Part shown: positions 4,903 through 49,425 of the stretch, one piece after another
Layout: each line of letters begins with the position of its first letter
Position numbering within the stretch: the stretch's first letter is position 1
The notes under the pieces: generated by a model
Databases searched by the model: none
Told to the model about the DNA's origin: nothing
Seen by the model: only the letters and a program-made list of their open reading frames with translations
Made by a program: the position numbers and the translations under genes
Source of the DNA: Flectonema sp. DT1601
Taxonomy: Eukaryota
Reading direction: 5' to 3'
Length of the DNA stretch: 64,000 nt
NCBI GenBank assembly: GCA_964019425.1
Contig: OZ025780.1
Coordinates: 1,116,001-1,180,000, forward strand

Positions 4903-5053
4903 GGCCAGTGACCATTGTTGATTGTTAGGTGACCTTTTTCTTGATGCAGAAGACAATGTGGAAAGGAGAGGGAGCAGGAATGGTTGTGTAGCAGTCTCTT
5001 ACTGTCTTATGATGGCTGACTGATAACATCCCGGGTTTACGGGGAACCGCTCG

Positions 5054-5363
5054 GCATTCTCAGTGAAGTACTGTTGAAAGGAAAAGTAATAAAAGAGAGT
5101 CTGATAAAAACAATCACACATATTAACCACGTAACAAGATACTAACATCATAAGGCTCATGTCGTCCAAGCTTTCCCATTTTCTCAGCTGAAGAAATTGA
5201 TGGTGAGAAAGACAAATGGGACCAACTTAAATCAATGAAAAGGTAAATATTATAAGTCAGTGCTGGGCATTCTCAGTGAAGTACTGTTGAAAGGAAAGTC
5301 ATAAAAGAGTCTGATAAAAACAATCACAAGCCACATGTCATCTAAGCTTTCCCATTTTCTCAG
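5054..5363. repeat. Imperfect direct repeat (about 5054-5188 and 5267-5363)
   Basis: GCATTCTCAGTGAAGTACTGTTGAAAGGAAA...GTCTGATAAAAACAATCACA and AAGCTTTCCCATTTTCTCAGC each occur twice. Confidence 0.8.
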
Positions 5364-5544
5364 CCCAGGAAGAAAGTTGGAACCAAAATTTGCTTGACAC
5401 CCAAAGCTTGTGCCATGCGACAACAAACTATTCTGGGTAGGCAATTCCCAAGTTCTTCTGCATGAAACTTCCCTATTCTTTCATTAATAACCGGTCAAGG
5501 CTGAAGCATTGAGGTGTCAGTGTCTCTCGAACAGGGATCAGGTT

Positions 5545-8500
5545 AACCTTCGTATCATCATCGAGGGAACAGCAAATCAGCGCGCACAACAGCAAAGTTA
5601 CAACCAGAACCCATGGAAAAAGAGCCAGATGAAAAAAGTAGATCATCTGTTTGCCAAACCATCACAGCACCGGCACAGAAGAAGTTACGGGCAACAACGA
5701 GGCGGCCGTCTTAGACACTCGCCGCTGTCCAACTTCCACCATCGAAGCGAAAACGTGCAACACCGAAACAAGCGAAACTTCGATGGTATTGACTGGAAGT
5801 TATATGAGAAGAGCTGCAATAGGCAAAGGTTGTCTTTCATAAGAAAAAACCTCTCTCATCGTAAAATCCGCGGAAAACAACCAGGACTTCGAACTTGCGG
5901 TGTAATCTATGCACTGTTTAGACGCTCCGACGGCAAAGTAATATACGTCGGCCAGGCAGCTAACTCAGCACTGGAGCGAGCGCAGTCCCACTGGTACCAG
6001 GCAAAGAAGTGGTCACGTGACAGAAGGCAGAACGAAAATCGTCTGATGCAATACCTGTCGCAGGAAAGGCTACCTCCACTAACAATCCCACTCGAGAAAA
6101 TCCCAAGCAATCATTACCACAATGCTTCGGACTTCTACAGAGCTGCTGCCCCTCGAGAGCAGCATTATATTAATAGTTTTGGAAAACTTCTAAATGTGAG
6201 AGGTTATTACTCACCAAAGCTAAGCTCTCAACGATCGAGAAAACACCAAAACCGCCCGCCACGCCCTGTTCGCCAACAGCAGATGCCATCTTTCAAGTCA
6301 CAGAATGTATACGAGCAGAACAGGTTTTATTTCAGTGAAGTTAACGATGATGGCGAGGACTTTGAATTATTCCAACAATCAAAACCAACCGCAACAATTA
6401 CATTAGAAAATGGTGTGTCATTTGAAGTTGAGACTTCCTACAAATGGTTGCCATCGAAGCTCAACTTTTTATTTGCTATGCCTGAAGACGAATTTTCGAA
6501 CTACGACTTTACTCGTTGGCAAACAAATACAACTACAAAGGTACTTCAATTCCTTCGTTCTAATTTCCACCAAGAACGTTACACAGCCCGTGTAAAGTAC
6601 CTCGAGAGCTGCTTTATGGAAAAATTGAACCCAGCAACACTACGCCGTCAAAAACAAAAAGGAAGCAAACAGCTACTGGCTTAAACTGAACGTCAGCCAC
6701 AAGGCCTTAGATAGATTGAATCTAGGAGCAATTCTACACAGTGACGAAGTTAAGGCAGTCTGTCCAAATTTAAAAACCTTAAGCAGAACTAGAATCTGTC
6801 ACAAACTGGGTACAACTGTAGGAGATATTGTATTAAACGCCACTTCTGTTGGGAATGGATGCGATGAACCCCTCTGTTCACCATGTCCCTGTTGTACTCT
6901 CGTTCCAGGAAGTATTAAATTCGATGGCCACGCCTGCGGTCTAGCAGTAAATCTTCCCGTATCTGCCGAATTACGAGTTTGCACGAGGACAGAAATTCAG
7001 AGTTCCAAAGCACCCCGCTGCAACAATGGGCTCGCTCGAAAGCGACATAGCAGTTTACGTAGATAAAGCTTACAGAAACACCACTGACGATATTAAACTT
7101 CGCTTCAAAAACGTAATTCTTAAGCATCTCCACACCAAACTAAGCCGAGACCTTTCATTCCTTGACTCCCCGCTGTCAAACAAGGCTCTCAAAGAACTTT
7201 CTTCACTACAAAATTCGATGGTTCTCTTAAAAGTAGACAAAGGACAACATGATATTGGTTTCATCTGTAAATCCTTCTACCTGAGTCTCCTCAGCAAACA
7301 ATTAGGAGGTCCAGCCTATCAACAATTGAAAGCAACAGAGGAAATCACTCTAGCCTTCTTAGCTGAGAATAATAAAATCTTAGGAAACAAGCATGCAGAT
7401 AGACTACCACATCTCTACGGCATGATTAAATTGCACAAGTCAGCTATTGGGATGAGATGGATTTCGGGAGCCTCTTCACTCACAGGAACGGAGAAGCAGC
7501 GTCAATTAGACAAGGAGCACAAAACGGCACCCGCAACAGCCACAACACACGCCCATCTGCATCTATCAAGTATTCTTAAAAATGTGATGGCTCTACTAAA
7601 AGAAAAAGATATGAATTCAAAATACAAACGTTATTGGATAGTCGAATCTGATAAAGACATAGCTGCTGATATTAAATTAAACGCAACTCGACTAAAAGGC
7701 CTATCTCCCAAGACACACGACTTCACTACGATGTATACACGACTACCCCACCAGGAGATCAAAGATAAAGTGAATGAAGCAATTAAAGAAGCATTCGAAT
7801 TCAAGAATATTATGCGACTCGAATCTAATGACCCTGCGACCTACCGTGCTTTATCACAGTTGGAATGTAGAGCGCTTTTGTGTGGATAATTCTCTAATTT
7901 CAATGGGAGGAAAACTATGGAGACAAGTAGTTGGCATTCCCATGGGCGGCAACGCAAGTAGCGATATAGCTAATCTCTACTGTTACAGAATCGAATCTAA
8001 ATTTATGGATGACCTTGTAACAAAAGGAGAGTTAGATTTAGCACGCAAACACGACTACTCTTGCCGGTACATAGACGATTTCCTTACATGGAACTGCAAC
8101 CCACCACCAGCAGAATTATACTCCATGAACTACACCGAGACCTCTAATGGTATTGATGATGTTTCATACATTGGAATTAGAATCCGAATCGAAACCACCA
8201 GATCAAACAACAGGTGGATACGTCTAAGCGTTAACGACAAGGCGCGTGGTTGGCATATCATACCAACAAGATTCACCCACCAGCACTCAGCTGCTCAAGA
8301 ATCGATGGGTACTGGTATCTTCACCACCATGCTCCTACGAGCACTCAGAATCTGTAATAATCAGGCAGATCTTCTACAAGAGCTCGAGTTCGTAACATAC
8401 AGACTACTCAACCGAGGATACAAGTTTAAGAACCTCGCAGTAGCTTGTCACAGCTTTATCAACTTATATATTGACGATGGCAATGTTGCAGCTGCAATTC

Positions 8501-9465
8501 GAAGACGACTAAATATTACTTCCGAAAAGTTTAATCATGGTATCCCTGTAAGCGACGAAAAAGATACCATTAATCATAAAAGTTCCACACTTCACACCTT
8601 AGACAAACGATTCCCAATACAATCACATCAATCTTCAGGGGAAGGTCTAATCGGAGGTGAGTGTGGATGGGCATCGCTGAATTTTGTTGCAGACCATCTT
8701 TATCTTGACCGAATTAATTTCAGCTATTTGCAAGAACTACAACAAACATTCTACGAAGAACATCAAAAAGTAGAACCTGGCAGCAACGAGCAAAAACCAT
8801 CCCCGGATGGCTGGTTCTCTTTAACCGTTCTGGGGGTAGCAAGTAAACATAAACTCAACAGGGAAATCCACCAATATGTTTTTGTTGCAGACCATCTTTA
8901 TCTTGACCGAATTAATTTCAGCTATTTGCAAGAACTACAACAAACATTCTACGAAGAACATCAAAAAGTAGAACCTGGCAGCAACGAGCAAAAACCATCC
9001 CCGGATGGCTGGTTCTCTTTAACCGTTCTGGGGGTAGCAAGTAAACATAAACTCAACAGGGAAATCCACCAATATGTAGATCCCAGTTCTATGGACTACC
9101 CAACAATAGCCGCCGCATTCATTTTAAACAAAGCTGGTGCTAGAATGTCACACTACATGGTGGCCCTTGTCTCCTTTGATTCCATTATTGTTAGAGACAT
9201 TCTCAAAGGAGCGACAGACCGACGATTATCATTCGACCATTTTGACAGACATTTTAAACGCCCAGAATATTGTTTTCACATGATTTTAAAAAAGACTCTG
9301 CAGGATAATAATAATGATAACGACTGTACCATGGCACCCTCGAATGAAGGAATTCTACTCCTCACCAACACTAAGGAAAAGCGCAAGAAAGACGACTACA
9401 GCTCCGATGAAGGAGAACTCGCACTCGTAATAAAACGAACAGATGTAGAAGAGATAGAACGCTGA
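5545..9465 (+). pseudogene. Frameshifted EN-RT-protease polyprotein ORF of PLE family A (pieces 5509-6684, 6716-7066, 7026-7889, 7774-9465)
   Basis: Successive overlapping ORFs align colinearly with family B. The breaks are small indels or short deletions, some in homopolymer runs. Confidence 0.85.
8683..9078 (+). repeat. In-frame 198-bp tandem duplication (66 aa) inside the protease-like domain
   Basis: FVADHLY...EIHQYV occurs twice with essentially identical DNA (8683-8880, 8881-9078). Family B has one copy. Confidence 0.95.
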
Positions 9466-9511
9466 TCAAAAGCAAATATATGCTAGCCCGTCCTGGCGAG
9501 CTCCGATGGAC
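9463..9511 (+). ncRNA. Conserved cis-acting junction/pseudoknot RNA starting at the PLE stop codon (family A)
   Basis: Hairpins AGCA/TGCT and GCC/GGC. Loop GTCC is complementary to downstream GGAC, and family B has ATCC/GGAT (compensatory change). Confidence 0.6.
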
Positions 9512-9578
9512 ATTAAGAAATCAGTTCTTTTGAAATAGACCAATTGATGGATCCGATTTATTATTTAACTGGAATGAA

Positions 9579-9644
9579 GTCCTTAGAACTTACTGATGAA
9601 GGCCTAAGAGGGACAAGTAGTATAAGATTAAGGCCTGAAACTAC
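9579..9644 (+). ncRNA. Hammerhead ribozyme, non-circularly permuted (family A)
   Basis: CTGATGA at 9593-9599 and GAAA at 9637-9640. Stem II AGGCCT/AGGCCT (9600-9605/9631-9636), stem III GTAGT/ACTAC (9617-9621/9640-9644), stem I CTTA/TAAG (9589-9592/9623-9626). Predicted GUA cleavage after 9622. Confidence 0.85.
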
Positions 9645-9757
9645 GTATTCCACAGTGTATTATGGAACAGCAGAACAATGTGTTTTTATAACTTTTCTTT
9701 TTTATATTTTATTTTAGTGCACTTTTTTATAACAAACTCATATTCTAACTACTAGCC

Positions 9758-12700
9758 ATGCCGCTAGAAAAGATTCCGGATTGCAATTACAACAACGCAG
9801 CGGATTTCTACAGAGCTGCCGCACCACGTGAACAGTATTATATTAATTCCTTTAAAAGTCTATTAAATACGCGTGGCTATTATGCACCAAAATTGAGTAC
9901 GAACAGAAATCGCACAAGAAACAACCGCCAACCTCCACCTGTAAGGCAACAACATCTTGCTACAGAAAACTTCTACAACTTCAACGAAGTAGCAGATGAC
10001 GGTTACAATGTGAGAAGCACGTCCTCCAATACACTGCAACCAACAACAATAACACTAGAAACAGGTGTTTCTTTTCAAGTCGCAACGGATAAAAAATGGA
10101 TCCCGTCAAAGCTTAACTATCTGTTTAAGCTTACTGACAAAGAATTCGTTGAATACGACTTCTCGCGTTGGCAGGCACGCTCCACTACAAAAGTCTTGCA
10201 GTTTCTTAGAAGTAACTTTTTTCAAGAACATTACTGCCCGCGTAAAACAGCTGGAGCATTGTTTCATGCAAAGACTAAATCCTGCCAATCTCAGAAGGGA
10301 AAACAAGAAGAAGGATTCGGACACTTACTGGTTGAACTGAATCTTGGCCACAAAGCTTTAGATCGTATTGGTCTTGGCGCTGTTCTTAGATGTGATGAAG
10401 TTAAAGCAACCTGTTCGAACACGCATCTGTAACAAACTTGGAACAACAGTTGGTGATATCGTCTTAAATGCATCTTCAACAAGCATCAATTCAGACTCCC
10501 CGACTCAATCTACTTGCAATTGCAGTATTCAAGAACTGAATAGTCTAAAATACAACGACCATTCTTGCGGACTCGCTATTGATTTACCAGTCTCAGAAGA
10601 ACTAAGGGACTTCTTCGCACGAGGTCAGAAATTTAGAGTCCCAGTGCACCCATCAGCTGCATTAGAATCACTTGAAAATGATATTACTGAATATATAACT
10701 CACGCATACAAGAACGTTGGCGATAACTTTAAATCGATCTTTAAAAACACAATTCTTAAACAATTGCAGCTTAAATTAAGTAAAGACTTAAGCTTTCTTG
10801 ACTCACCATTATCAAATAAAGCATGGGCTGAACTTCAGAATCTTCAATCTCAGTTTGTATTTCTTAAAGTTGACAAAGGACAGCACGATATTGGTTACAT
10901 GTGTAAATTAAATTATTTGCGTTTACTTCGAGAGCAGCTACAAAGTGATTCTTATGAACGCATCACATCAGACGAACCAACTCTACTAGCCAACCTCAAG
11001 AACATGAACATTTCAATCAATGCCCGCCACTCTGATCGACTCCCACACCTATATGGAATGATTAAATTACACAAATCAGCTATCGGGATGAGATGGATTA
11101 CTGGTGTCTCATCCTTCACGGGTATAGCGGAACAACGACAATACGATAAGGATCATAATCTTGCACCTGCTACAGCAACAACATATGCGCACCAACATCT
11201 CTCTAGTATCCTTAAAAATGCGATGACTATATTAAAAGAGAAAGATATGCATTCACGGTTCAAACGATACTGGATTGTGGAATCAGATGATGAAGTCTCT
11301 AGTTCGATTAAACAGAATTTGATGGTTTTGAAAAAATTATCCCCTAAGACTTTTGATTTTACGCCTACCACACAACGCTATTAAAACTAAAGTAAGTGAA
11401 GCACTGCAAGAAGCCTTTAGTTTCAAAAATATCTTACGTCTTGAATCGAGTGACCCTACACGATTCCCTTCTCTTGCGCTTGCAGAATGTCAAAAATTAC
11501 TTGAATTCTTTATTGACCCCTCCTTTATTGCATTAAGAGGTTATATTTGGAGACAAACAATAGGCATCCCAATGGGTGGCAACGCCAGTAGCGATATAGC
11601 AAATCTCTACTGCTATAGAGTTGAATCCGCATATATCGATTCTTTAATTGAAGCAAAAAATCTAGACTTAGCTCGGCAACATGACCACTCGTGTAGATAC
11701 ATCGACGACTTCCTCACCTGGAGTTGCGACCCTCCACCAGCAAGTCTATACTCAATGGATTACACTGATACTTCGAATAATATTGATGATGTCTCTTATA
11801 TAGGAATTCGTATCCGAATAGAGATCACTAATAATAAACGATGGATTCGTTTAAGTGTTAACGACAAAGCCAGGGGTTGGCATATTACGCCAACAAGGTT
11901 TACCCATCAGCATTCCGCAGCTCAAGAATCAATGGGTTCAGGTACGACCATGATCTTACGAGCTTTAAAAATCTGCAACAACCAGGCAGATTTTTTACAG
12001 GAACTTGAAGCGGTAACTTATAGATTACTCAACCGGGGCTATAAATCTGACAATATCAGAGCAGCATGCCTCCGCTTCATTAGCTCTCACATTGATGATG
12101 GTAATACAGCAGCTGCAATGCGTCGACGTATCAACCTTACTTTTGAGAAGTTTAGTCACAAAGTCCCATTAAGCATCGAAAAGGATACAATTAACCATAC
12201 GGGCTCTACAAGCCATTCCTTGGATAAACGATTTCCACCATCCCTACATCAAACATCAGGAGAAGGTCTTCTCGGTGGAGAATGCGGATGGGCAGCGCTC
12301 AACTTCATTGCAGATCATTTATATATCGATAGAATTAACTTCAGTTTTCTGCAAAACTACCAACAGCGATTTTATGAAGAATCTCTTAAGTAGAACCGAA
12401 CAACTCAGAGCATAAACCATCACCAGATGGCTGGTTCTCGCTACAAGTACTTAACATGGCTTGCATGACTAAATTCAACAGGAGAATTGAGTACTTCGTT
12501 AACCCTGCAGATTTCGATTATCCTGAAGCAGCCGCAGCACTTATTCTGCATAAAGCGAAAACAAGGATGATTCACTTTATTGTTGCGCTAGTCTCATTTG
12601 AGTCCATGGTCATCCGAGACATTCTTAAAGGCACAAAAGATTTAAGACTCCCTTTCGACCATTTTGACAAGATGTACCAAATTACAGAATATAGTTTCCA

Positions 12701-12866
12701 TATGATACCATTAAAAGCTCAGACTGATATGGATGTTACAATGACACCTGCGAATATAGGACCTTTGATGGTATGCGAGGATAAAGTAAAACGGAAATTG
12801 GATGACGACTCATCCGTTAACTCGACTGTAATAGTGAAACGACCAGACGTCAAAAATTCAAATTGA
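9758..12866 (+). pseudogene. Frameshifted polyprotein ORF of PLE family B (pieces 9758-10432, 10065-10340, 10368-11384, 11353-12393, 12456-12866)
   Basis: Colinear with the family A protein. Contains small indels, e.g. CTTAAGTAGAA at about 12388 versus AAAGTAGAA in family A. Confidence 0.85.
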
Positions 12867-12916
12867 GCAAAAGCAAATAAACATTGCTAGCCCTATCCTG
12901 GCGAGCTCCGATGGAT
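12864..12916 (+). ncRNA. Conserved cis-acting junction/pseudoknot RNA at the stop codon (family B)
   Basis: GAGC/GCTC closing stem, AGCAA/TTGCT hairpin, GCC/GGC hairpin, and loop ATCC complementary to downstream GGAT. Confidence 0.6.
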
Positions 12917-12955
12917 TTTTATCTTTGAACGATAACAACTTCAACATAGAATGAA

Positions 12956-13023
12956 GTCCCTTAGAACTTACTGATGAAGGCCTAAAAAGGGACAAGTAGT
13001 ATAAGATTAAGGCCTGAAACTAC
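12956..13023 (+). ncRNA. Hammerhead ribozyme, non-circularly permuted (family B)
   Basis: CTGATGA at 12971-12977, AGGCCT at 12978-12983 and 13010-13015, GTAGTA at 12996-13001, TAAG at 13002-13005, GAAACTAC at 13016-13023. Extra helix GTCCCTT/AAGGGAC. Confidence 0.85.
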
Positions 13024-13135
13024 ATATTCTATTACCCTTTGATGTTAGGAAACTGCAGAAATGAATACTTTTCTTTTAATGATCTCTACTTTTCTTATTC
13101 TCACTTTTCTGTTCTAAAATTAATGATACTAACTA

Positions 13136-14809
13136 CCTAAGAGACAAGTAGTATAAGATTAAGGCCTGAAACTACGTATTCTACAGTGTATTATGGAACA
13201 GCAGGGCAATGTGTTTTTATAACTTTTCTTTTTTATATTTTATTTTAGTGCACTTTTTTATAATAAACTCATATTCTAACTTCAGTAACTACCATGTGGG
13301 GCTCGCTTAGGGTCTACTAGTGGAGGTTGCCAAGCTGCTTCTAGGAAGCAGCATATGACGGGGTATTTCGGTTCTTCGTAACCACTTTCCCTGCAAGGTG
13401 CATTCTACCTAAAGACTCCACCAAGCTAACATATGGCGAGGAGGAGCATGACTGACCATTTCAGTCATTTTCTGCATTAACATAATATTATGTTAATGCG
13501 AATTATTTTGATATTTATTTTTCTTTTATATCCCCATTTTTATTTTCCTAGAAACGCAATTTTGATTATTACTTTTATTTACATCTTTTGCCGCGGTAAG
13601 GTAATGTGAAACGGGCCCTGCTCATCTCTCTATTTTACTCCTTTAAAACTATTTTCCTTTTCTTTCTAAATTAATCTCTCCTCTCTACAGCGCTTTTTAA
13701 AGTCCTGCCTTTAAGGGACTTCCTTCTCAGGAAAATCACGCCACGCGCAGGAAAATCACACCGGCAAGACTCTACGTGTTTTAGTGGAACAGCGAAGCGG
13801 TAAACAGCTACCGTTTAATGCAATTAATACAGCAATTCGCAGCATGGGTGCGGGGAACCTTCGCATCATCGAGGGAACAGCAAATCAGCGCGCACAACAG
13901 CAAGGTTACAACCAGAACCCATGGAAAAAGAGCCAGATGAAAAAAGTAGATCATCTGTTTGCCAAACCATCACAGCACCGGCACAGAAGAAGTTACGGGC
14001 AACAACAAGGCGGCCTTAGACACTCGCCGCTGCCCAACTTCCACCATCGAAGCGAAAACGTGCAACACCGAAACAAGCGAAACTTCGATGGTATTGACTG
14101 GAAGTTATATGAGAAGAGCTGCAATAGGCTGGAAAGGATGCCATTTATAAGAACTCTCATCGTAAAATCTGCGGGAAACAACCAGGACTTCGAACTTGCG
14201 GTGTAATCTATGCACTGTTTAGACGCTCCGACGGCAAAGTAATATACGTCGGCCAGACGGCTATTCAGCACTGGGGCGGGCGCAGTCCCACTGGTACCAG
14301 GCAAAGAAAGTGGTCACGTGACAGAAGGCAGAACGAAAATCGTCTGATGCAATACCTGTCACAGGAAAGGCCTCCACTAACAATCCCACTCGAGAAAATC
14401 CCAAGCAATCATTACCACAATGCTTCGGGCTTCTACAGGGCTGCTGCCCCTCGAGGGCTTTGGAAAACTTCTAAATGTGAGAGGTTATTACTCACCAAAA
14501 CTAAGCTCTCAACGATCGAGAAAACACCAAAACCGCCCGCCACGCCCTGTACGCCAACAACAGATGCCATCTTTCAAGTCACAGAATGTATACGAGCAGA
14601 ACAGGTTTTATTTCAGTGAAGTTAACTGATGATGGCGAGGACTCTGAATTATTCCAACAATCGAAACCAACCGCAACAATTACATTAGAAAATGGTGTGT
14701 CCTTTGAAGTTGAGACTACCTACAAATGGTTGCCATCGAAGCTCAACTTTTTATTTGCTATGCCTGAAGACGAGTTTTCGAACTACGACTTTACTCGTTG
14801 GCAAACAAA
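13136..14809 (+). mobile_element. PLE family A copy 3: partial pseudo-LTR (13136-13281), structured leader, then GIY-YIG region; 3'-truncated
   Basis: 13136-13281 repeats the family A 3' tail (about 9603-9750) but lacks CTGATGA. About 13855-14809 is nearly identical to 5545-6528 with indels. Confidence 0.9.
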
Positions 14810-14858
14810 TTTGCGGGTTTGCGGGTTTGCGAGTTTGCGGATTTGCGGGTTTGCGGAC
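14810..14858. repeat. (TTTGCGGG)n 8-bp tandem array, about 6 units
   Basis: TTTGCGGG TTTGCGGG TTTGCGAG TTTGCGGA TTTGCGGG TTTGCGGA, directly at the break of PLE copy 3. Confidence 0.9.
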
Positions 14859-15862: not shown

Positions 15863-15933
15863 TTAATACTTGGGTATCCCTAAAAACATAGTCGGTTAAT
15901 TGTTCGTATGAATTCGTACAATTCCCCTGAACA

Positions 15934-16077
15934 CTTTATGGCTAACTTCCACGTTCAGCCAGTAAGTGTCTGAATCCTTCTTCTTGTTCTCACTTTTTGA
16001 GATTGGCTGCATTCAATCTTTGCATCAAACAATGCTCCAGTTGTTTTACGCGCCTGGCGTAATGTTTTTCAAGAAGT
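15934..16077 (-). mobile_element. Inverted fragment of a further PLE subfamily related to family B
   Basis: The reverse complement aligns to about 10215-10356 (RVKQLEHC.MQRLN.ANL...ENKKKDSDTYWL) with many substitutions. Confidence 0.8.
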
Positions 16078-16903: not shown

Positions 16904-18076
16904 TTATTTCAAGTTCCTTATGCTCGTATGCAGTTTGTTTCTGTCAATGGATGAACAACCTTCTAGGAAATTACTTCCAACGGATTCCACATTCACGAGG
17001 GTTAAATCCAAGGAAGTAAGTGATGAACATTTTTTTAGAAAAGAGTTCCCCACAGTTGAAAGATTGCTGAGACTTGATAAATCCAGAGATGTGAGGGATG
17101 AACAATTATTTAGAAAATAGTCTCCAACAGTTGAAAGATTGCTGAGACTTGATAAGTCCAGAGATGTGAGGGATGAACAATCACATAGAAAAGAGTCTCC
17201 AACAGTTGAAAGATTGCTGAGACTTGATAAGTCCAGAGATGTGAGGGATAAACGACCTAGAAAAGAGTACCCCACAGTTGAAAGATTGCTGAGACTTGAT
17301 AAGTCCAGAGATGTGAGGGATGAACAATCACATAGAAAAGAGTGCCCCACAGTTGAAAGATTGCTGAGACTTGATAAGTCCAGAGATGTGAGGGATGAAC
17401 AATAACTTAGAAAAGAGTTTCCAACAGCTGAAATATTGCTGAGACTTGATAAGTCTAGAGATGTGAGGGAAGAACAAGAAAATAGAAAAAGGTTTCCAAC
17501 AACTGAAACATTGCTGAGACTTGATAAGTCTACGGATGACAGTGAATTGCAATTTTTGAGGAAATCATTACCAACAGATGTGACGTATTGAAGACCAGAC
17601 AGACTGACCCTTATAACCTTATGAAATGAAGATAAGAAATCATCCGAAACGGTCGTGACTGAGGGTTCAGAGTTGCTGAATGAGATGTTCGTAACATCAT
17701 CCGAGAACCACTCACTGTTACTAAACTGAAGACAGCCATCCACAGCGAATGTGGGAGTATCAAGGCACAAAAACCCGTCTTGATCTCGTTCTCCTCGTAG
17801 GAATGCCTTCGCTCTCTTTGCAGAATCTGTGAACCATTCCAATCCAAACAAGCGCACCACCGATGCATCCAACAGAGAGCCGTCCTCCACTCCGTACGAC
17901 ACCAGTCGACTACCTGCTCGAAGCCGCGATCCTGCGAGAGAGAGTTCAAGAAAGTCAGCATCAGTACCCCACTCATCAGCTGCAACCTGCAATGCATCCT
18001 TCACGAGCGACTCTCCAGAAGCTGTGAAAACAACGTCAGGAAATCCAGCGTCTGGGAACGTAACCGAAAGTTGCAT
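16904..18076 (-). CDS. Ubiquitin-like N-terminal domain plus 25-aa leucine-rich repeats (BspA-like LRR)
   Basis: Likely start MQLSVTF at 18076, Ubl-like segment LELSLAGSRLRAGSRLVSYGVEDGS, and repeats SSLTSLDLSSLSNLSTVGxSFL. Confidence 0.85.
   Translation of the reverse strand: MQLSVTFPDAGFPDVVFTASGESLVKDALQVAADEWGTDADFLELSLAGSRLRAGSRLVSYGVEDGSLLDASVVRLFGLEWFTDSAKRAKAFLRGERDQDGFLCLDTPTFAVDGCLQFSNSEWFSDDVTNISFSNSEPSVTTVSDDFLSSFHKVIRVSLSGLQYVTSVGNDFLKNCNSLSSVDLSSLSNVSVVGNLFLFSCSSLTSLDLSSLSNISAVGNSFLSYCSSLTSLDLSSLSNLSTVGHSFLCDCSSLTSLDLSSLSNLSTVGYSFLGRLSLTSLDLSSLSNLSTVGDSFLCDCSSLTSLDLSSLSNLSTVGDYFLNNCSSLTSLDLSSLSNLSTVGNSFLKKCSSLTSLDLTLVNVESVGSNFLEGCSSIDRNKLHTSIRNLK
17000..17580 (-). repeat. 75-bp coding tandem repeat (LRR units; one unit is 72 bp)
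   Basis: GCTGAGACTTGATAA recurs at 17066, 17141, 17216, 17288, 17363, 17438 and 17513. Confidence 0.9.
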
Positions 18077-19356
18077 TTTAACTCGCCTGAGTAACCTACG
18101 AAATGTGATGATGAATGGCTTGGAGTATGATGAGATTAATAAATGTTTAAAACATATTTCTTCAAACAAACTTCTTTTTTTAGTCCAACCTACATCCATG
18201 ATGTTTAACAAACAACCTGTTATATAACAAAAATACGAGTTTCTCATCTCTTAATAAGTAGAATTGTCGCACATATCGATAAACCTGTTGCGAATGATTT
18301 ATAAAATATTTCCAAACGTAACAACAGATAACCCAAGCCACTATCCAATCACCCACTATAACCTAGCCGTCGTTTTCATGCTAGCATATTAATACAACAA
18401 GAATTACAAATTTTATTCAGAAAAACAACAATAACTTTGCGCGAGCGAATGCGAGCCTGGATTGGTATCTCTAGGGGTTTGGAAGTTGGTAAGAAGAAAG
18501 AAGTTTTTAGAGAACTTGATAGCAGCGGTGGGGATAGAGGCACGCACAGGGCAGCGTCAGGATGCCTCAGGAGGTGTTTTCATAATGCTCTGTGAGGAGC
18601 TTCGTGCTGCAGGAAGAAAGGTAAAGGCAACTGAATACCTCCCCGAGGGAAAGGGAAGTGTGGAAAGCTTCTGTGAAAGGCCCGCGGCGCGAGAGCAGGG
18701 CCACGTACCCCGGCCCCCGCCGCCCGGGTACGGCGAGCGTTAGCTGGGGCTGATGCTGATCTCTGGTACGACTGCCATCCTTCCACATAAATTATGTGTT
18801 CCCTGTTGAATGTTGAAAGTGTTTATCACAAATGCCAAACTAACAATAGTGTTACAAAACCAGACAATTAAAGTCGACTGGTTCCCAAACTAAGAAAGCA
18901 AATGGAGAGAGAGAACGCCACAAAGCAGCCGCTAAAGAGTAGTACAACCCGAGATAAATATCTCAAAGCATTCCGAATGCCAGCAAGGGTTGATAGTGAC
19001 GATGATAAAACCTCATATATGAAAAACTCCGGGGATCGGAATTGTCCAAAATATCATCTTAAAACAAGGGCACTTTTTGCAACATACAATAAAAAACAAG
19101 AAATAAATACATGGATTCCAACTTCCTTTATATCACAAATAAAGTAAACACCGCCTTTGAGGTGTTACACCGAAAGGTGACTTCCGATGCTCTTACCAGC
19201 AGACAAGTGAAGTTGATAATCCCACATTGAAAAATAAAAATAGTTAAATGTCGACATTCTTTTTTTAGCCGCGTGAAATCATCTTTTGAACAAGTTTTAT
19301 ATGCTTTGTGTGAATACAAAAAAAAACTTGCATTATTATAATTTTACCTTTCCAAT

Positions 19357-33115: not shown

Positions 33116-33490
33116 TAGTTAGTTAGAATATGAGTTTATTATAAAAAAGAAAAATTATAAAAACACATTAGTTCTGCTGTTAGTTAGTTAGTATCATTAA
33201 TTTTAGAACAGAAAAGTGAGAATAAGAAAAGTATTCATTTCCACAGTTTCCTAACATCAAAGGGTAATAGAATATGTAGTTTCAGGAGCCTTAATCTTAT
33301 ACTACTTGTCCCATTTTAGGCCTTCATTCTGCTGTTAGTTAGTATCATTAATTTTAGAACAGAAAAGTGAGAATAAGAAAAGTAGAGATCAATAAAAGAA
33401 AAGTATTCATTTCCACAGTTTCCTAACATCAAAGGGTAATAGAATATGTAGTTTCAGGCCTTAATCTTATACTACTTGTCCCTTTTTAGT
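33116..33490 (-). mobile_element. Nested stack of three PLE 3'-end fragments (family A 33116-33181; family B 33182-33326 and 33337-33490)
   Basis: Reverse complement of the family A and B 3' tails, including partial ribozyme (GGGACAAGTAGTATAAGATTAAGG...TGAAACTAC) and (CTAA)n ends. TTCTGCTGTT is duplicated at 33172-33181 and 33327-33336. Confidence 0.9.
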
Positions 33491-35921
33491 TAATTAGTTA
33501 TATAATCCAACATAGCGATCTTATTTCTTTCTTTTCATAATAACAAGTGAGTAACGGTTTCAAAACAAATATGTGTGAGAGTAGCACCAAACAAAGTATC
33601 ATCGTGTGGGGGGTAAATTGATACGGACCGTATTATCAATTCACAAAGTGGGGGGTGGGGGGACAAAAACAATTAAAGAACAAGAAAACCTGAAAAATCT
33701 TTTTTTCCAACCGTTTTTTTGCGCATACATATAGAAAAAGAAAAAAACGGCAGCAGCTTTACCCGAGAAACAGGTCACGTTTCTTTTTCGAAGGACCTAT
33801 ACATCTCTTGGGTAGCTCGCGCATTTTCAACAGGTTGGAAAATTAAAGCAGCAGATAGTTTTATTTCAGGAGCTCATGAATTGTTAGTATTAGTTACCTC
33901 TGTATTAATCCCATGCAACAAAGAAGAGTCGAACAGCTCGAAGGGGTTCGAGTCACTTCTCAAAATGAGAGGGTCAACGCCGCATCACCCGAATTTTAAT
34001 GTCGCACAGATTTATCCCTAACATCACTTCTCAGAATGTTAGTTATGATAAGGTTCTCAAATAGAACTTTATTTATTTATTTATTTTGGTACGAATCGCG
34101 AAGAATGAGGTAAAGAAAAAGAAAAAAAGGTAACTTGATACTACAATAAGGGAGGTGATAGTTTGAGCATATTTATAATGATATTAACTATAATGTTAAT
34201 TAATGAAGACCGGGGAGGTGATAGTTTGACAAATGCAGAAACAGTAATAAACCTTATAATACTATTTATTTATTTATTTACGAAGCCTAGGAGCCAAAAC
34301 CAGGAAAAGCTCACAGGGCAACAGTTATATCGCTACCAGCAACTGTGAGACGCTCACAGACAATAAGAGACGTAGAATAACCTGGAACAAATGACTACCT
34401 AAACCCACCGCCCGCGCGAGCAGACAGTGTAAGAGACGGCTGATAACGCTACTAAAATAAGTAATAAGGTTAAACTGAAAAAATGACAGAAAATTAAGCT
34501 GCACTTTAGAATAGTAGACAATGTACTACAGTCGTACATAACTAAAATAGTATCCAGAAATCGTTGTTGAGTCCGGTAGTTTGGGGACCACGTACCACAA
34601 GTTGAGCGCCCCATGCTTTGCAGTTCGACAACGGGATGTGGATTTCTTTCTTTTCTTGTTTTCGGTATTCATATTTTTTTAAAAAAAACTAAGTTGAAGA
34701 CGGGGGATACGTTGATACTATGTTCGAGGTCTTACCGAAAATAAAACTAAAGAACGAACCGTTTCTAAGCTGTCAGAGGCAGCATAGGCGGGGTAATAGT
34801 TTGATAATATAAAAAAAGAAGAAGAAGTAGTGCAGTACAACAACATCGTTGTTACTACGAACATGGAAAGAGTATACTTTCTTTCTGCTTACGTACGATG
34901 ACCCAATTCATTCTACTGGAGGTGGGACTCGATTTGTAGTTTTTTCAATCAAATCAAGACAACGTACGCAAAACATTAATTACTAAAACAGCTGCTCTAG
35001 CGAATAAGAACAAATTACTATCTTAATAATAATATGTGCGAACCTGTTCTCATTATGTGAGAGGAAGAGTTGCACACGACAAGACACCAACAGTTTTCAA
35101 TATTGGAACATTATATTTGAAGCAGTAAAGGAAACAGTACGTGACACTCTGACAGTGCAGCTGATTGAAAACCACCACTTGCGCTGAAAGCGAACTTTTA
35201 CCGCTACCGAAGGGAACACCCTACAGAAGTCGAATAATGCAAAACATAAAACTAACTCGTGAGAGAGCTCCTTACACCGCCCTTACGGGAAGTACAAGAA
35301 AAACTCGGGAAAGATAATATCGCACTCGCCTGCCAGTGCGATAAGAATCCTTATCAAAAAAAAAATGAAAATAATTACTTTTTAAGGAATAGTGGTATAG
35401 TGGTATATAGGGAAACGAAATAGTATTAGAAGTGACAGTTTTTATATCTTCACATTATTATGTTCTTCTTTATAATTGAAGAACACAAAAAAAATATGCG
35501 AAGTGATTGCAAAGTCGAAGTGACTGTTTTGAAATAGCTGAGCGGGAGTGATAAAATAATAGTGACGGGTAATCAGATAAACTCATTGAAAATAAAAATA
35601 AAAAAGGAATCAGCACACAGTATTATTAAAGCTAATGAGCTTTGTCGTGTTTATGTAAGTAGACTTTGAATTTCGGAATAGATTTTTTTTTGTTTGCACA
35701 AAATTTGTTTTACAGAAGACAGAGAACATAACGTTGCTGCATTTCTTTTTTATCAAAAAAAAGAAGAAAAAGAACAAAAAAATAAAATAAAAAACACTGC
35801 TGCTACTCATGTTCAAAAGCTCTTCTGAAAAAACTAATTATATTGTCTCGGCCAACTCGTGCTGAGGAAATAAAAAAGTTTATCGACTGACCGTCATCAG
35901 TTGTTGATTGGGTTAAATAAG

Positions 35922-36416: not shown

Positions 36417-38969
36417 TTATGTCATTTCACGTTCTACAATGTCTCCGACCAGTCTTGAGAACGGGATTCCCCTAATTGACATGATACTATTACTTAGTAA
36501 TAGTCCATTGGTACGCATTGCTGCCACAACTCTTTTGATAACGGAATCTGTTTCAGCCATTTTATCCAACACTGAGTAATCCCTGTCACTGAAAGCATCT
36601 TTATATAATTGACACCACTCAGTTGGAATCTCTCCATCATAGAAGTTCCAAACACCTGACACCTGACTGAAGGTGGAAAGGTTAAACTCAAAGATAGTAT
36701 CATTCTTATTGCCCCAAGTGGTTGATTTGTCTGCCCAGATTTCTACTGGGCGAGTGTGCATTTGCATGGTGGTGTCAGTAGCTGCGCAGGAATCGCCCGT
36801 CAGTAAACAGAACGTATTAATCGAAGCAGCACCTTCCGCAAGTGTTTTACTCTTTTCAACTGGCGAACCAATAACTGTAAAGAATCTTTGTTTTGTTGTT
36901 CCTAAACTTCCATGAAGAATTCGATCTGATGCGAGTCCGATAGTTGTGTTTTCTTCCCAAGAGGATCCATTAATTGACCGATAAACATTTGATACAAACT
37001 TAGCTGATTGAGCAACATGTGCTGGGCATTGTTTACCAGCATTCCAAACAGCTACAAGTGTGCTGCTGCAAATGGAGCTGATTTGCCCTTCGGTCCGCTC
37101 AACCGCTTCAATTACTGCTGTTGTTATCTCACTTGCACTATCTACTACTGAGGCGCAAGAACGGAGAAGATCAAAATTGATACTGACGGTAGCTACTGTA
37201 GCTGTGATGACAGTCAGTTTATTTTTCATTATTCCCCTATTAGGTGCAGCCATGCTTCGTACAGATCCATTCCCGTCTGACCCTCCCCCGAGGGAATCAC
37301 GGTGCTGCCGACTTCCGTCCTTCCTCCTCGCGCGTATCGTTCGGAGGACTTCCGACCGCCGCTTCTGAAGAGAACTCGGGAGGATGATTTGTAACGATAC
37401 CTCACCGACACCTTTCAATTCAGCTTTGCCGATATTATGACGACTAGGATTTCCCAAGTCAGTCCATTGGATTGTTGTCATCGTCGCTGCAACATCGTCA
37501 GCGATTGCAATGCCACCTCCAGCTGATGCAGACTCAATTCGAGAAGCCTTGTTAATAGTTGGTCCCATGTAGTCAGTTCTACCAGTTGTTGGGTTTACTT
37601 CTAATTTAGTAGTCCCGCTGTGAATTCCCATTCGAACTCGCAATCCCCTCCACCCAACAGCTGAGTTCTCTTTGCACAGTGGGTGTGCCATAATTCCTAC
37701 TGGCCAAGTAATTGCGTACAATTTTTCTTGAGCCATAAGACAAAATTTTATTCCCTCCGCAACTGTGTCGAATGCGACCATGAAAGCATCCCCGATAGTC
37801 TTTACTTCGTAACCATTAGTCTGTTGAATGCATTCTCTCATAACATTATTGTGAAGGTCCATTGCTTCTCTCATTGCGGAAGTACATTTCTCCCAAATAT
37901 CAGTCGATGATTGAATGTCAGTGAATACCATCGTTACAGTATCGGTATCAAGACCTGGTGGGCGGCTTCTGAAATGGATGGGACGCAGGGTTTCTACGGT
38001 CTTTGGCATCATTTCAGTGCCGGAATCACAAGAGCGAAAGGCGTCGTCATCAGTAAATATCGCATCAGGTAAGTATGGTCGGTACATTCGAAGGTTGTTG
38101 AGAAGGCCTCGAAATGCAACTCGTAAATCGTCTTCACCATCTCCGACTAAAAGATTTGCAGTTTCGAGATCGAAACGGACAAGCGCTGCTGCGACATCTT
38201 TGGCCATATCAGCTGAAGCCTGAGCGTTTGCTTTCTGAGCCTGAGTATCCATGGCGAACTTCCGAGTTAGAAAGAAGTCAAGTGCAATGGCAGCAATTCG
38301 AATAGACATAACAAAACCAAACCAACCCGTCCCTCTCGAATTCGTAGGAGTCTCAGTACTCCAGTCCTTTGGAATAGAATCATAGACTCCCAGTCCAATC
38401 CCTTCTTCAGCAGACTTAAATGCCAAGTAAATCAAAACAATTATAGCATTGATGTTAATTGTTTTCTTTCTGCAACCTGCCAACAGTAACAGGTCAGTGA
38501 TTACGATAATTGCAACCCATTGATCTTTGAGACCGAAATCGAAAAAGTCAGCTGCAAAGCAAAACAAGTATCCAAATATTAAAATTGTTGCTTCTGCAAG
38601 CCAGTAGGGTAGTCTCTTTGTGACAAGCATGTAAATGAATGTGAATACGACAATCAATGTTCGGCAGACAGTGCTCACTGCTATTGCGTGATCACCGTTG
38701 TTATAATTTAGAAAAGCGAACATTGGCTGTGTTATAATCATCATTATCGATGTAGGAAATATTAACCACTTTCTCATTTTCTCGTTATCATCATCTTCCT
38801 TTCTTAGTACTTTTTCCATAATCTTTCCGAAAAGAGTTTCCACCAGTTTATCGAAACATGAAGGCTCTTCTTCATTGCCTGAGAGGGCAGCTTCACTTGC
38901 AGCCATCTTCTCAGCGCTTTCCATATCAATACTCGACATGTTCATAATGTAACTGTCACGGCGATTCAT
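36417..38969 (-). CDS. Multi-pass membrane class III adenylate cyclase with a degenerate second cyclase domain
   Basis: About 5-6 TM helices, then FTDIQSST, YEVKTIGDAFM, RVRMGIH and DYMGPTINKASRIES (K/D pair typical of ATP specificity). The C-terminal cyclase-like half lacks the catalytic Asp residues. Confidence 0.9.
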   Translation of the reverse strand: MNRRDSYIMNMSSIDMESAEKMAASEAALSGNEEEPSCFDKLVETLFGKIMEKVLRKEDDDNEKMRKWLIFPTSIMMIITQPMFAFLNYNNGDHAIAVSTVCRTLIVVFTFIYMLVTKRLPYWLAEATILIFGYLFCFAADFFDFGLKDQWVAIIVITDLLLLAGCRKKTININAIIVLIYLAFKSAEEGIGLGVYDSIPKDWSTETPTNSRGTGWFGFVMSIRIAAIALDFFLTRKFAMDTQAQKANAQASADMAKDVAAALVRFDLETANLLVGDGEDDLRVAFRGLLNNLRMYRPYLPDAIFTDDDAFRSCDSGTEMMPKTVETLRPIHFRSRPPGLDTDTVTMVFTDIQSSTDIWEKCTSAMREAMDLHNNVMRECIQQTNGYEVKTIGDAFMVAFDTVAEGIKFCLMAQEKLYAITWPVGIMAHPLCKENSAVGWRGLRVRMGIHSGTTKLEVNPTTGRTDYMGPTINKASRIESASAGGGIAIADDVAATMTTIQWTDLGNPSRHNIGKAELKGVGEVSLQIILPSSLQKRRSEVLRTIRARRKDGSRQHRDSLGGGSDGNGSVRSMAAPNRGIMKNKLTVITATVATVSINFDLLRSCASVVDSASEITTAVIEAVERTEGQISSICSSTLVAVWNAGKQCPAHVAQSAKFVSNVYRSINGSSWEENTTIGLASDRILHGSLGTTKQRFFTVIGSPVEKSKTLAEGAASINTFCLLTGDSCAATDTTMQMHTRPVEIWADKSTTWGNKNDTIFEFNLSTFSQVSGVWNFYDGEIPTEWCQLYKDAFSDRDYSVLDKMAETDSVIKRVVAAMRTNGLLLSNSIMSIRGIPFSRLVGDIVEREMT

Positions 38970-39884
38970 TTTAAGTATCTGGTGGTTAGAATGGAAATGA
39001 TATTTAAGTAATAAAATAATAACATCAATTAATTGCCACCTTACTTTGGGGAAAAGGGAGGTTACCAAAGTTGAGCACTTACCAAATAGCCGATAAAGGG
39101 GGAACAAAATACTAAGCGCTTCAGGCTTCTTTTCCGGCACCCGAGTGCCATGTTGCACAACGTACTTTATTTTGTTTGTGCATAATATACATAATATACA
39201 AAATACGAATAAAGGAATAGGTTAAGTTTCGTCACAATTCCCTTTCTACTGAAATAAAAAAAATGATGTAAAAGTGATGTCAATCACAAACACGATAACA
39301 ATGAGAGATTACAAACAACGAAAGCAGATGCCGATTGTTACGCAACATCTGCTCTGTGTAAATAGATGGAAAGAAGAAGCTAAAAAGCCTTTCAAAAATG
39401 TGTTGATAGGATGAGTTATTCCTTCAAGGAAAGGGGGACGAACTATTAGGAAAATATTATGCAATCTCATTGGAAACTATTAGAGATGAAATAGCTACTT
39501 ATTAAACTGCATCTATTTTACTTCAATGTGTTGTTTTATTTTATAATAAATATTGTCGAGATAGATAGATCCATTTCCTCTTCAGTCGTGCATTAGGTTA
39601 TAATAGTGGCCTGGAGTGTGTTGCCTCTTTACAGGACATGTTATCGAAGAAAAAAACATAAATCCAGGCGGATGATGACATCACACAAGAAGGTCAAAGA
39701 CATATACAGAACAGCAATGAGAGATGCGGATTAAAAAATAACAAGGGGAGCAGATACGAAACACTTGCTCTGTGTAAATAGATTTCAGTGGATGGGTTAA
39801 ACTAATACAACAATGTCATACAAACTCATCGGGAACTCACGCAAGCATCTCATAGCACAGAAAGATAACATAAATATGATGAAT

Positions 39885-42425
39885 TCAATTACTCAGATCA
39901 ACTGCCTCAAAGACTCTCTGTTTACAAGCTTGACGCCAGTGACTGTAAACATTATCGCCAGTGAACGCATCGAGCTTGTTCAGGAGCTCATTGGCTTTAT
40001 TAAAGTTGCGGGACACAATTTTGTGAACAAACTCATTCCACTTCGCGAACTTACTTTCCGCCTCCAGTTGATACATCCATTCCTCTTCCGAAATCTTTCG
40101 CAACGCCTTCGCTTCGAATACCAGTTGCGACCGCTCAAATAACTTTCGAAACAACACTAACACCGCAGCACGAGAATCTGCAACCATGTTGGAATGCTCA
40201 GCACACGCGTTGTCAATCAACCCATCGTAGCCCTCTGCAGTGCACAGCTTCTCCAGCGAAGAAGCAAGCGGAACAACCGCAGATAAGATTGAAAATTTCT
40301 TCATCCCAACAATCCCAATGTTCCCCACCTTCGAGTCTCCAGAAGCCACCCCAAACGACAACTGCAACTTCGATGCCGCCTTCGCCATCAGACCAGCCTT
40401 TACCGCACTGCCCTGGTGCCCGTTGTTGTTGCGATTCGCATTGAAGTACGCCATCAACCTGTCCCCAGTAAACGCATCACACACTCCCCTGTTGCTGCTC
40501 ACCGCCGCAGTCAGGCATTCGATGAGGGAACAGTGCAGTTCGATTGTCGCTGTGGGACATTCCTTTCGGTTGTGCCAACCAATACTGTTGAACATAATTA
40601 TAGTCACACACTTCTTCTTCAATCTCATTTCCATAGCCTGCTGGTGAGCTACTTGTTGAGGCGTAGATCTTGACAAACTGCTGACCGTCGTATCTTCACT
40701 GCTTTGGTGATTCGTGTCGCTGTCTTCCGACTGCAACAGCACACTCTGCGGCATGTAATTCTTGTACTCAATCAGGTTCCGCACCATCTGCCTGAATGAA
40801 TTCTGCATCTCCTTTACTTCACTCAAACTGCTCAGAGGTACTGTCAGGTTTACGTCGTCTGTTGCCATCACGGCAACGGCCGCCATGTCATCCCTCAATA
40901 CGATCAACGGTGAGATTATTATATTCGTAAACACAACTGACAACGCCAACAGTATCACCACACACCCAGCAGTCACAACGTACATGATCATATAATTATG
41001 TGCACGTTTGTCATCCGTATCCTTTTTGTCCTTCTCAATGTTGATGTTAATCATATCTGCTGCCGTATCCATCACTGACATTACACTCTCTCGAGGAACC
41101 AACAGCACAATGTACCAGTGAACATTCGAAATTTTCACAGAAGTAACTCGAACCCAATAGAGAATAGATGTGCTGGTATCTGTCCAATTGAGAACTATCT
41201 CGGGAGCTAAGTTATCAGCGTAGTCGTAGTACGCACCGCCAGTACCGTCCTCTGACATTTCGAACATGTATCTACCGTGCCTTGCTATGGGTGAAATCTC
41301 TCCCGCGATCTCACCGTCTGTGGTGTGGTCTACGATGGGAAACGGCGCTGCACGAACAATATTTCTGCCATCCTTCAGTCTTCTTCTGAAAACATAATAT
41401 GGCATTCCCACATTACAACCTGCCACAATATTCACAACTTTGGTAAAAGGATTTCTCTCAACTGCATATAAAATAGAATCACTAGGAAGTGATACTTCTT
41501 TCATTACGTTACTAATGCTACTCGTCGAGGTGGATGAAGTTATCATTCCAACCCGCTTGTCTTGTTTGGGGAAAAAATTTTGCTGTTCGGGATGTACTAC
41601 CGAAGTGCAGACCTGCACTTCTACGTGTGTACCTCCAGAAACAAGCTCAGAATAGTAAGTGGGACCAGGTTCGTATAAAGCAGTTTTAGGATTAGAACTT
41701 TGCATATTGTAGAAACATGGATTTACTAGTTGATGTGCATTTGCCTTCCTCAAAAGAAGATAGTTTGCAAAGCATTTTCCATTTAAATGACAAGGTTTAG
41801 GTATTAAGCGACCCGTATCAATAAAGACCTCTCCGTGATAATACATTGGTTGATAATTAATATAACCATTAGGAAAGGTTTGACGAGATTCAGCTGTATA
41901 ATAAATATAGGAACCGTTTTCATAATTACCTGTGACGGAATACAATATCTCACCTCCCCAAGCACCACCGAAAGCTTCACGAAATGTCTTGCCATTGGGA
42001 GTCGTGTTGAGTGCGACGAATCCAAGAGAGTGTGGGCCATACAGTTCAACAGATTGTTTGTATTTTGAGAATAACACATTCCTGAGAACGGTATCGATAA
42101 AAACAGGATTTGATACCTCATCCGGGTGATAGAGTTTTAAAAACGACGCCACACCCTGCGACAACATAGTCGGAACTCCTAATATTCCGAGCATCTTCGT
42201 CTTCAAGTCTATCAGAATTGAGAGCAGTAATCGAGCAGTCACCTCCTTCACATTCACACTACTACTTTTCATGCACTGCGAGATACCGCGGTCTCCTGTC
42301 TCTCGGGCAGCATCAGTTGCCGTGTTCCCTGTCGAGATTGAGATCCCCCCCAGAATCAGACTCGTTGCAAATATCATCGACACCGCCAGTGCCAAGATCA
42401 GTGATTGAATACCAAGCTCAGCCAT
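39885..42425 (-). CDS. Receptor-like protein: TM, extracellular sensor domain, TM, HAMP-like linker, degenerate class III cyclase domain
   Basis: Two TM helices, HAMP-like IISPLIVL...SSLSEVKEMQNSF, EYKNYMPQSVL linker and FTGDRLMAYFN. First metal-binding Asp absent (IMFN). Confidence 0.8.
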   Translation of the reverse strand: MAELGIQSLILALAVSMIFATSLILGGISISTGNTATDAARETGDRGISQCMKSSSVNVKEVTARLLLSILIDLKTKMLGILGVPTMLSQGVASFLKLYHPDEVSNPVFIDTVLRNVLFSKYKQSVELYGPHSLGFVALNTTPNGKTFREAFGGAWGGEILYSVTGNYENGSYIYYTAESRQTFPNGYINYQPMYYHGEVFIDTGRLIPKPCHLNGKCFANYLLLRKANAHQLVNPCFYNMQSSNPKTALYEPGPTYYSELVSGGTHVEVQVCTSVVHPEQQNFFPKQDKRVGMITSSTSTSSISNVMKEVSLPSDSILYAVERNPFTKVVNIVAGCNVGMPYYVFRRRLKDGRNIVRAAPFPIVDHTTDGEIAGEISPIARHGRYMFEMSEDGTGGAYYDYADNLAPEIVLNWTDTSTSILYWVRVTSVKISNVHWYIVLLVPRESVMSVMDTAADMININIEKDKKDTDDKRAHNYMIMYVVTAGCVVILLALSVVFTNIIISPLIVLRDDMAAVAVMATDDVNLTVPLSSLSEVKEMQNSFRQMVRNLIEYKNYMPQSVLLQSEDSDTNHQSSEDTTVSSLSRSTPQQVAHQQAMEMRLKKKCVTIIMFNSIGWHNRKECPTATIELHCSLIECLTAAVSSNRGVCDAFTGDRLMAYFNANRNNNGHQGSAVKAGLMAKAASKLQLSFGVASGDSKVGNIGIVGMKKFSILSAVVPLASSLEKLCTAEGYDGLIDNACAEHSNMVADSRAAVLVLFRKLFERSQLVFEAKALRKISEEEWMYQLEAESKFAKWNEFVHKIVSRNFNKANELLNKLDAFTGDNVYSHWRQACKQRVFEAVDLSN

Positions 42426-49378: not shown

Positions 49379-49425
<47 letters not shown>

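Follow-up and report, generated by a model that had tools for sequence, protein, structure and literature searches.

Josephin, USP, OTU and Ulp1 are all families of ubiquitin or ubiquitin-like deconjugases, and Ulp1-like domains occur in other transposons, while the Dualen/RandI elements, which belong to the retroelements without long terminal repeats (non-LTR elements), reportedly carry a Josephin domain, as Kojima and Fujiwara are said to have described in 2005. Dualen elements with Josephin are also cited in the sections consulted of a survey of Penelope-like elements (Craig et al. 2021, PMC8557442), and there Chlamys-1_cBra and Chlamys-4_cBra of Chara braunii are given a C-terminal motif of weak Josephin homology. 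Josephin and OTU domains are attributed to non-LTR ORF2 proteins in the available part of a preprint (10.64898/2026.06.17.732966), and excerpts of two further reports place deubiquitinase domains in Helitrons (PMC9741609, PMC6431247), where OTU is putative and VTD domains, which co-occur or alternate with OTU, are active deubiquitinases in vitro (Erven et al. 2022, PMC9741609). Here we analyse a stretch of 64,000 nucleotides (hereafter the window) of contig OZ025780.1 from the eukaryote Flectonema sp. DT1601, in which two diverged Penelope-like copies end in a C-terminal domain predicted to be a Josephin-like cysteine protease. Chlamys elements are already known to carry a Josephin-like domain as an accessory; the feature in the window is real, and its Josephin-like reading is probably correct. 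The initial annotation of this DNA, which knew of no such domain in Penelope-like elements, is contradicted on that point by the two Chara elements, as far as their published description in PMC8557442 was available.

Chlamys-type copies and an intact relative

The elements form a head-to-tail series on the forward strand (window 5545-14810) consisting of copy A, copy B, a repeat of the 3' end of A and a fragment, C, and frameshifts disrupt every copy in it. The parts that concern the protein are the following.

5545..9750, + strand: copy A (family A), truncated at its 5' end, with three frameshifts near 6650, 6977 and 7878
5899..6200, + strand: GIY-YIG endonuclease at the N-terminus of copy A, with a Pfam match short of the cut-off (PF01541, E 0.004) and, on inspection by eye, without a CCHH motif
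6884..6895, + strand: CxC linker motif of copy A, as defined in PMC8557442; the copy B counterpart is at 10515
7236..8530, + strand: reverse transcriptase (RT) of copy A, with DKG at 7236, GIPMGG at 7933, YIDD at 8068 and a thumb
8602..9297, + strand: in copy A, the predicted Josephin-like protease domain (Cys 8662, His 9151, Asp 9196), split by the duplication in the next line
8682..9077, + strand: exact, in-frame tandem duplication of 198 nt (units 8682-8879 and 8880-9077)
9752..13135, + strand: copy B (family B), directly behind copy A, truncated at its 5' end within the endonuclease, with several frameshifts
12223..12719, + strand: in copy B, the predicted Josephin-like protease domain (Cys 12283, His 12573, Asp 12618), with a stop and a frameshift at 12388-12390

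An undamaged version of family A exists outside the window. The protein cluster of this family has 24 members, and among the 15 members listed, P0005 is an intact open reading frame (ORF) of 1367 residues, to which copy A is 98-99% identical outside the 198-nt duplication. From its N-terminus P0005 comprises a basic region, GIY-YIG, CxC, DKG, an insertion in the fingers, RT, thumb, the Josephin-like domain and a short tail. Its PF01541 match (residues 241-290, E 0.007) again falls below the cut-off, with the RT downstream in the same ORF. Inspection by eye found neither CCHH nor a CX2-5CxxC finger at its endonuclease; the insertion in its fingers fits, also by eye, the Chlamys criterion of about 20-40 residues, and its counterpart in the RT of copy A lies at about 7467-7545. 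In the passages available from Craig et al. (2021, PMC8557442), Chlamys elements are characterized by an N-terminal GIY-YIG without CCHH, by CxC and DK(G) and by an insertion in the fingers, and the absence of CCHH and of the CX2-5CxxC finger at the endonuclease separates them from Naiad. Copies A and B (the latter with its DKG at 10872) are Chlamys-type Penelope-like elements, an assignment made by matching architecture and motifs to that description. The earlier identification of a Penelope-like element joining endonuclease to RT holds.

The whole C-terminal domain is present in intact copies, as a check proposed at the outset had asked, both in P0005 and in other retrieved proteins. The 198-bp duplication noticed at the same time is confirmed as an exact tandem that P0005 lacks; it is absent from all seven retrieved proteins with a whole domain (P0001, P0002, P0005, P0007, P0010, P0016 and P0017) and is either a recent event or an assembly artefact. 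In one of these, the predicted protein P0002 (633 residues), the end of the RT thumb and the whole Josephin-like domain, its triad intact, follow an unrelated N-terminus of repeated helical sequence; either a host gene has captured this part or the gene call is chimeric.

A predicted Josephin-like protease domain

Synonymous sites are saturated between families A and B (proportion of synonymous differences, pS, 0.74-0.82 across the coding domains), which bears out their initial description as diverged families. Over this distance the Josephin-like domain retains 66% identity across 151 codons, with a proportion of nonsynonymous differences (pN) of 0.22 against a pS of 0.78; two stretches of the RT lie in the same range (pN/pS 0.26/0.78 and 0.15/0.74), and the tail, at 47% identity and 0.36/0.65, is less constrained. 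Because its pN is low relative to pS and comparable to that of the RT, the domain is, by codon comparison, under purifying selection, as had been suggested from the conservation of the triad alone. A codon check places that triad exactly where it was first proposed (Cys 8662 and 12283, His 9151 and 12573, Asp 9196). Eleven retrieved proteins reach at least one of its positions, and each of Cys, His and Asp is covered by nine of them without a single substitution; this retention says little, since the proteins are near-copies, and the comparison of A with B is more telling.

Relationship to Josephin was assessed with a profile of 18 Josephin-like domains taken from RT relatives and containing no member of the window family. 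The window-family domain scores 17.1 bits with this profile, against 6.5 for the best of 2000 shuffles. Comparing profile with profile yields 87.7% (E 3.4e-6) over a collinear stretch that begins at the Cys and ends at the Asp, against 0.2% in a control with a USP profile. An alignment of 21 rows, counted where a row has a letter, keeps the Cys in 20/20, an Asn at +6 in 20/20, the His in 18/19, an aromatic residue directly after it in 18/18 and the Asp in 15/18, and the order and spacing of the triad are collinear with those of Pfam-positive Josephin relatives. The residue after the catalytic His is Tyr in family A and Phe in family B; an aromatic gatekeeper at this place is a Josephin feature according to the portion seen of a study of such enzymes (10.1101/2024.07.24.604956). 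When joint profiles were compared with the sequences of the PDB, ataxin-3/Josephin chains (ataxin-3, ATXN3L and JOSD2) were the top four of eight matches with one profile and all five with another.

The fold was predicted as well. With the 21-row alignment, AlphaFold returns a domain of three successive helices and a beta-sheet (predicted local distance difference test score, pLDDT, about 55-85), for which the top Foldseek match, and the sole one at E<=0.001, is 3O65, the complex of ATXN3L with ubiquitin (E 7.3e-4); ranks 7-21 hold other Josephins, namely ataxin-3, JOSD2 and the bacterial PcJOS and BpJOS.

A number of observations weigh against a Josephin assignment. Pfam Josephin (PF02099) matches neither the window domain nor intact P0005 at E values up to 10, and a search of PDB sequences with the family alone gave no useful matches. 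The 18-domain profile also matches the His region of two USP domains with a similar E value (about 1e-3). The oxyanion Gln of Josephins stands shortly before the catalytic Cys; in the window family the Gln lies 11 residues before it, compared with 5 in ataxin-3, and P0039, the nearest outside relative, has Thr there, so that the equation of the 'HQ' of these copies with the HEKQ of Josephins, part of the first proposal, is not supported. AlphaFold run on the family alone (four rows) gave no usable fold (pLDDT 37.9), and the second model was built with Josephin-like relatives in its alignment and is hence biased towards their fold. The TM-score to 3O65 is only 0.55 (by target), and C39 peptidases occupy Foldseek ranks 2, 4, 5 and 6 with E values of 1e-3 to 3e-3, near that of 3O65.

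Both suggested checks gave divided answers: the profile search linked the domain to the Josephin profile of its relatives and found no match to the Pfam family, and the structural search placed the ataxin-3-like 3O65 first, with C39 peptidases close behind and from an alignment-guided model only. Taken together, the sequence comparisons indicate that the domain is probably Josephin-like without being a member of PF02099, and we judge a Josephin-like papain fold to be very likely. The original proposal, that of a Josephin-like protease with a papain fold in which the Cys-His-Asp triad is conserved, finds support in the profiles, the 21-row alignment and the fold match.

The same structural results bear on two other possibilities. 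The C39 matches would suit self-processing, in which the domain would cleave its own polyprotein and might, for instance, release RT-endonuclease from the tail, in the manner of C39/C58 papain-fold peptidases; look-alikes found with a language model include C39, C58 and Gln-amidase clusters, all below 0.9 and of value as leads only, but the sequence profiles favour Josephin. A different activity is suggested by the bacterial matches: some bacterial Josephin-like enzymes are ubiquitin 'clippases' in the part available of 10.1101/2024.07.24.604956. PcJOS and BpJOS at ranks 7, 12 and 21, together with a divergence sufficient to escape Pfam, would fit an irreversible cut within the ubiquitin tail or a drift to another small modifier, but the human Josephin match outranks the bacterial ones, and we consider this quite improbable.

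Deconjugase families behind the reverse transcriptase

A search with the RT alone found 13 relatives, six of them with Pfam Josephin after the RT (four above the cut-off) and two with USP/UCH. A profile of RT and C-terminal region was then run against 1.84 billion representatives and gave 6252 matches at E<=0.001, the best 150 of which were used; 148 of these were new, and 52, selected because their sequence runs well beyond the RT or because the Josephin profile matches them, were scanned with Pfam at E<=0.01. Josephin was present in 11 of the 52 (seven above the cut-off), USP/UCH in eight (seven above), OTU in two (both below) and Ulp1/C48 in one (above), with no other protease family among the relatives scanned. 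The OTU domains stand behind the RT in P0073, which also has DnaJ, and in P0139, which also has PHD; the Ulp1 domain stands there in P0074. Since the query profile held Josephin rows and one USP row, these frequencies are biased; OTU and Ulp1 were not in the query. Several deconjugase families occupy one slot in related elements. Cys boxes were found by pattern in seven of nine USP domains. By eye, P0050 may hold a second Ulp1-like domain behind its RT.

The terms Ulp1, OTU and peptidase are absent from the main text of PMC8557442, as they are, together with UCH, from the portion of its supplement examined, and a literature search, which did not extend to subscription papers, found no description of USP, OTU or Ulp1 domains in Penelope-like elements.

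Relationships were followed in a careful RT tree of 35 rows, with 13 of 48 left out (two long branches, nine rows that were short or lacked a protease match, and two Josephin rows that nearly duplicated others); its labels come from inspection by eye or a weak match for P0047 and P0050 and from profiles built in this analysis for P0038 and P0059. In this tree P0005 and P0039 pair within a starred set (95/96) that contains ten USP carriers and one row without, the main Josephin clade lies apart from that set, and the starred branches require at least three changes for the Josephin rows. Weighing against a history of repeated exchange, the approximately unbiased (AU) test on a quick tree of 46 rows rejected neither a tree that joins the window pair to the main Josephin clade (p 0.149) nor one that keeps the USP carriers in a single clade (p 0.117), and the AU tests leave the order of gains and swaps, for example from USP to Josephin, unestablished. 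It also counts against a general role that 30 of the 52 scanned relatives have no Pfam protease match and that 96 of the 148 new matches went unscanned, in most cases because little sequence follows their RT. As many relatives are without any such domain, it is, on these protein comparisons, an accessory module that is dispensable across the clade.

A dispensable domain might be captured cargo kept for folding or binding, without useful catalysis. The many relatives without it would fit, as would the USP-like P0059, which by eye appears to lack the catalytic Cys and His; against this, both window families have kept the triad intact although their synonymous sites are saturated, and the triad hardly varies in the 21-row alignment, and we regard cargo as the least probable of the explanations considered. 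The slot families also bear on self-processing. All four are ubiquitin or ubiquitin-like deconjugases, and the domain is missing in many relatives; self-cleavage would not be expected to recruit deconjugase families only, so that ubiquitin removal is favoured. Polyprotein processing, the weaker of the two mechanisms in the initial annotation, is in our view improbable.

It is therefore likely that the domain is an isopeptidase for ubiquitin or a ubiquitin-like modifier. In the mechanism that we propose, a single protein with endonuclease and RT would end in a predicted Josephin-like cysteine protease acting as a deubiquitinase, which would strip ubiquitin off the element's own protein or RNA-protein particle and so might delay proteasomal or autophagic removal until target-primed integration. 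That such self-protection from degradation is its main job has, in our judgement, an even chance. The main rival is an active deubiquitinase whose targets would be proteins of the host, involved in silencing or located where the element integrates, such as ubiquitinated histones, repair factors or ribosomes stalled on the long mRNA. The domain is fused to the integrating protein, one OTU relative has a PHD-finger match, one relative carries Ulp1, a SUMO-protease family, and the preprint on non-LTR elements ties, in its available part, the Josephin/OTU domains of ORF2 to relief of ribosome stalling (10.64898/2026.06.17.732966). Pfam, however, shows no chromatin-reader domain in the window family, and host targets seem to us unlikely. 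We lean somewhat towards the reading as a whole, that of dead Chlamys-type copies whose C-terminal predicted Josephin-like deubiquitinase would have shielded its own protein or ribonucleoprotein.

3' motifs, neighbouring features and known systems

A nearly invariant motif of about 85 nt is kept in the 3' untranslated regions (3' UTRs) of both copies, with differing flanks, and can be read as a hammerhead ribozyme.

9570..9652, + strand: in the 3' UTR of copy A, candidate hammerhead of type CSG (non-circularly permuted), with its core at 9593, predicted cleavage base 9622, GAAA at 9637
12946..13032, + strand: in the 3' UTR of copy B, candidate hammerhead of type CSG, with its core at 12971, predicted cleavage base 13001, GAAA at 13016

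In both, the core CUGAnGA is followed by the putative cleavage site and GAAA, stems I, II and III would have 4, 6 and 5 bp, and an extra helix of 4-5 bp would connect stems I and II at their far sides; an outer helix has one two-sided change between the copies. A descriptor requiring at least 4 bp per stem, composed after the motif had been seen, matched these two sites and no others when both strands of the 64 kb were scanned, and it matched nothing in 30 Markov controls. Three results speak against a hammerhead: stems I-III do not differ from one whole copy to the other and thus show no covariation, pair counts are not above those of shuffles (263/500), and the minimum-energy fold gives nested helices only (z -1.4 and -3.2). 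A second short motif after the stop codon, at 9466-9512 and 12867-12915, is nearly identical in both families, again with differing flanks.

Other traces of these elements, and repeats next to them, are as follows.

13136..13281, + strand: second occurrence of the 3' end of family A (96% identity with 9603-9750), a pseudo-LTR-like partial tandem
13687..14810, + strand: copy C, a 5' fragment of family A with N-terminus and endonuclease, without RT or protease domain
15929..16075, - strand: small, inverted fragment of the family-B linker
33120..33498, - strand: two more short 3'-end fragments, without an intact CUGAUGA core
5049-5364: local, short repeats of 70 and 37 nt, immediately upstream of the truncated 5' end of copy A

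The host is a eukaryote with intron-poor genes in the window, whose gene content resembles, we presume, that of euglenozoans. Two membrane proteins on the reverse strand (36417-39221 and 39885-42434) resemble receptor adenylate cyclases by eye, and genes of this kind would, we take it, fit a euglenozoan host. Seven 75-nt tandem repeats lie at 16928-17620 (+), where the reverse strand has a leucine-rich-repeat ORF of 448 residues (16904-18250), and a gene of 760 residues, by eye resembling a secreted glycoside hydrolase, is duplicated in near-identical tandem at 48760-55407 (98.6% over 2.5 kb).

What the analysis adds is one RT clade in which four families of ubiquitin- or SUMO-removing proteases stand at the same position. 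This suggests that related elements likely need to undo host ubiquitin tagging, and when different families are drawn on again and again for a single activity, this typically marks a host defence that is being countered. In its broadest form, the idea would be that the slot is an exchangeable anti-ubiquitin module, filled repeatedly from Josephin, USP, OTU and Ulp1, that ubiquitin- or SUMO-based restriction of protist retroelement particles is widespread, that the window family swapped USP for Josephin and that a functional type-CSG hammerhead lies at the element end; we hold this to be about evenly balanced. The elements make it testable whether ubiquitin-dependent turnover restricts retroelement particles, and supply small, natural and divergent Josephin and USP domains for assay.

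The 3' candidates follow the type-CSG examples in the available description by Eckert et al. (2023, PMC10085705) in the order of core, cleavage site and GAAA and in having stems I-III with a helix joining stems I and II; they differ from those examples in being predicted from sequence and sitting in a retroelement 3' UTR. Two natural examples of the type are given there, none in the genome of a known organism. Craig et al., in the sections consulted, mention split 'half cores' that match no descriptor (PMC8557442), and the 3' motif may account for the report that this clade has no hammerheads.

As for the protease, the window domain shares with ataxin-3, ATXN3L and JOSD2 (3O65, 2DOS, 6PGV) and with PcJOS and BpJOS a Cys helix, a helical insertion, a G-aromatic motif, a His-aromatic strand and an acidic or amide third residue; it differs from known Josephins in lying below Pfam detection, in the spacing of its Gln, in having Asp as third residue and in being fused to an RT. 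Helitrons resemble the elements described here, to the extent that the excerpts show, in carrying deubiquitinase domains of classes found besides or instead of one another, with a proposed role in preventing proteasomal degradation; yet Helitrons are DNA transposons with two such classes and demonstrated VTD activity, whereas here there are four families, including USP, known from sequence. Dualen/RandI elements likewise combine a retroelement polyprotein with a Josephin-like protease, for which, in the text available, disruption of protein degradation is proposed, and differ in RT class and endonucleases. In the Haematococcus non-LTR examples Josephin is N-terminal, as far as the preprint was available (10.64898/2026.06.17.732966), whereas in the window family the domain is C-terminal. 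Closest of all are the Chara Chlamys elements, which, likened by their partly available description, agree in the N-terminal GIY-YIG without CCHH, CxC, DK(G), the insertion in the fingers, the RT and the C-terminal Josephin-like motif, all in one ORF. Their ORFs, at about 1800 residues, have a second C/H-rich motif, compared with 1367 residues and a short acidic-basic tail in the window family, and their Josephin motif was reported, in the sections consulted, as 'weak homology' without a test of triad, fold or selection (PMC8557442).

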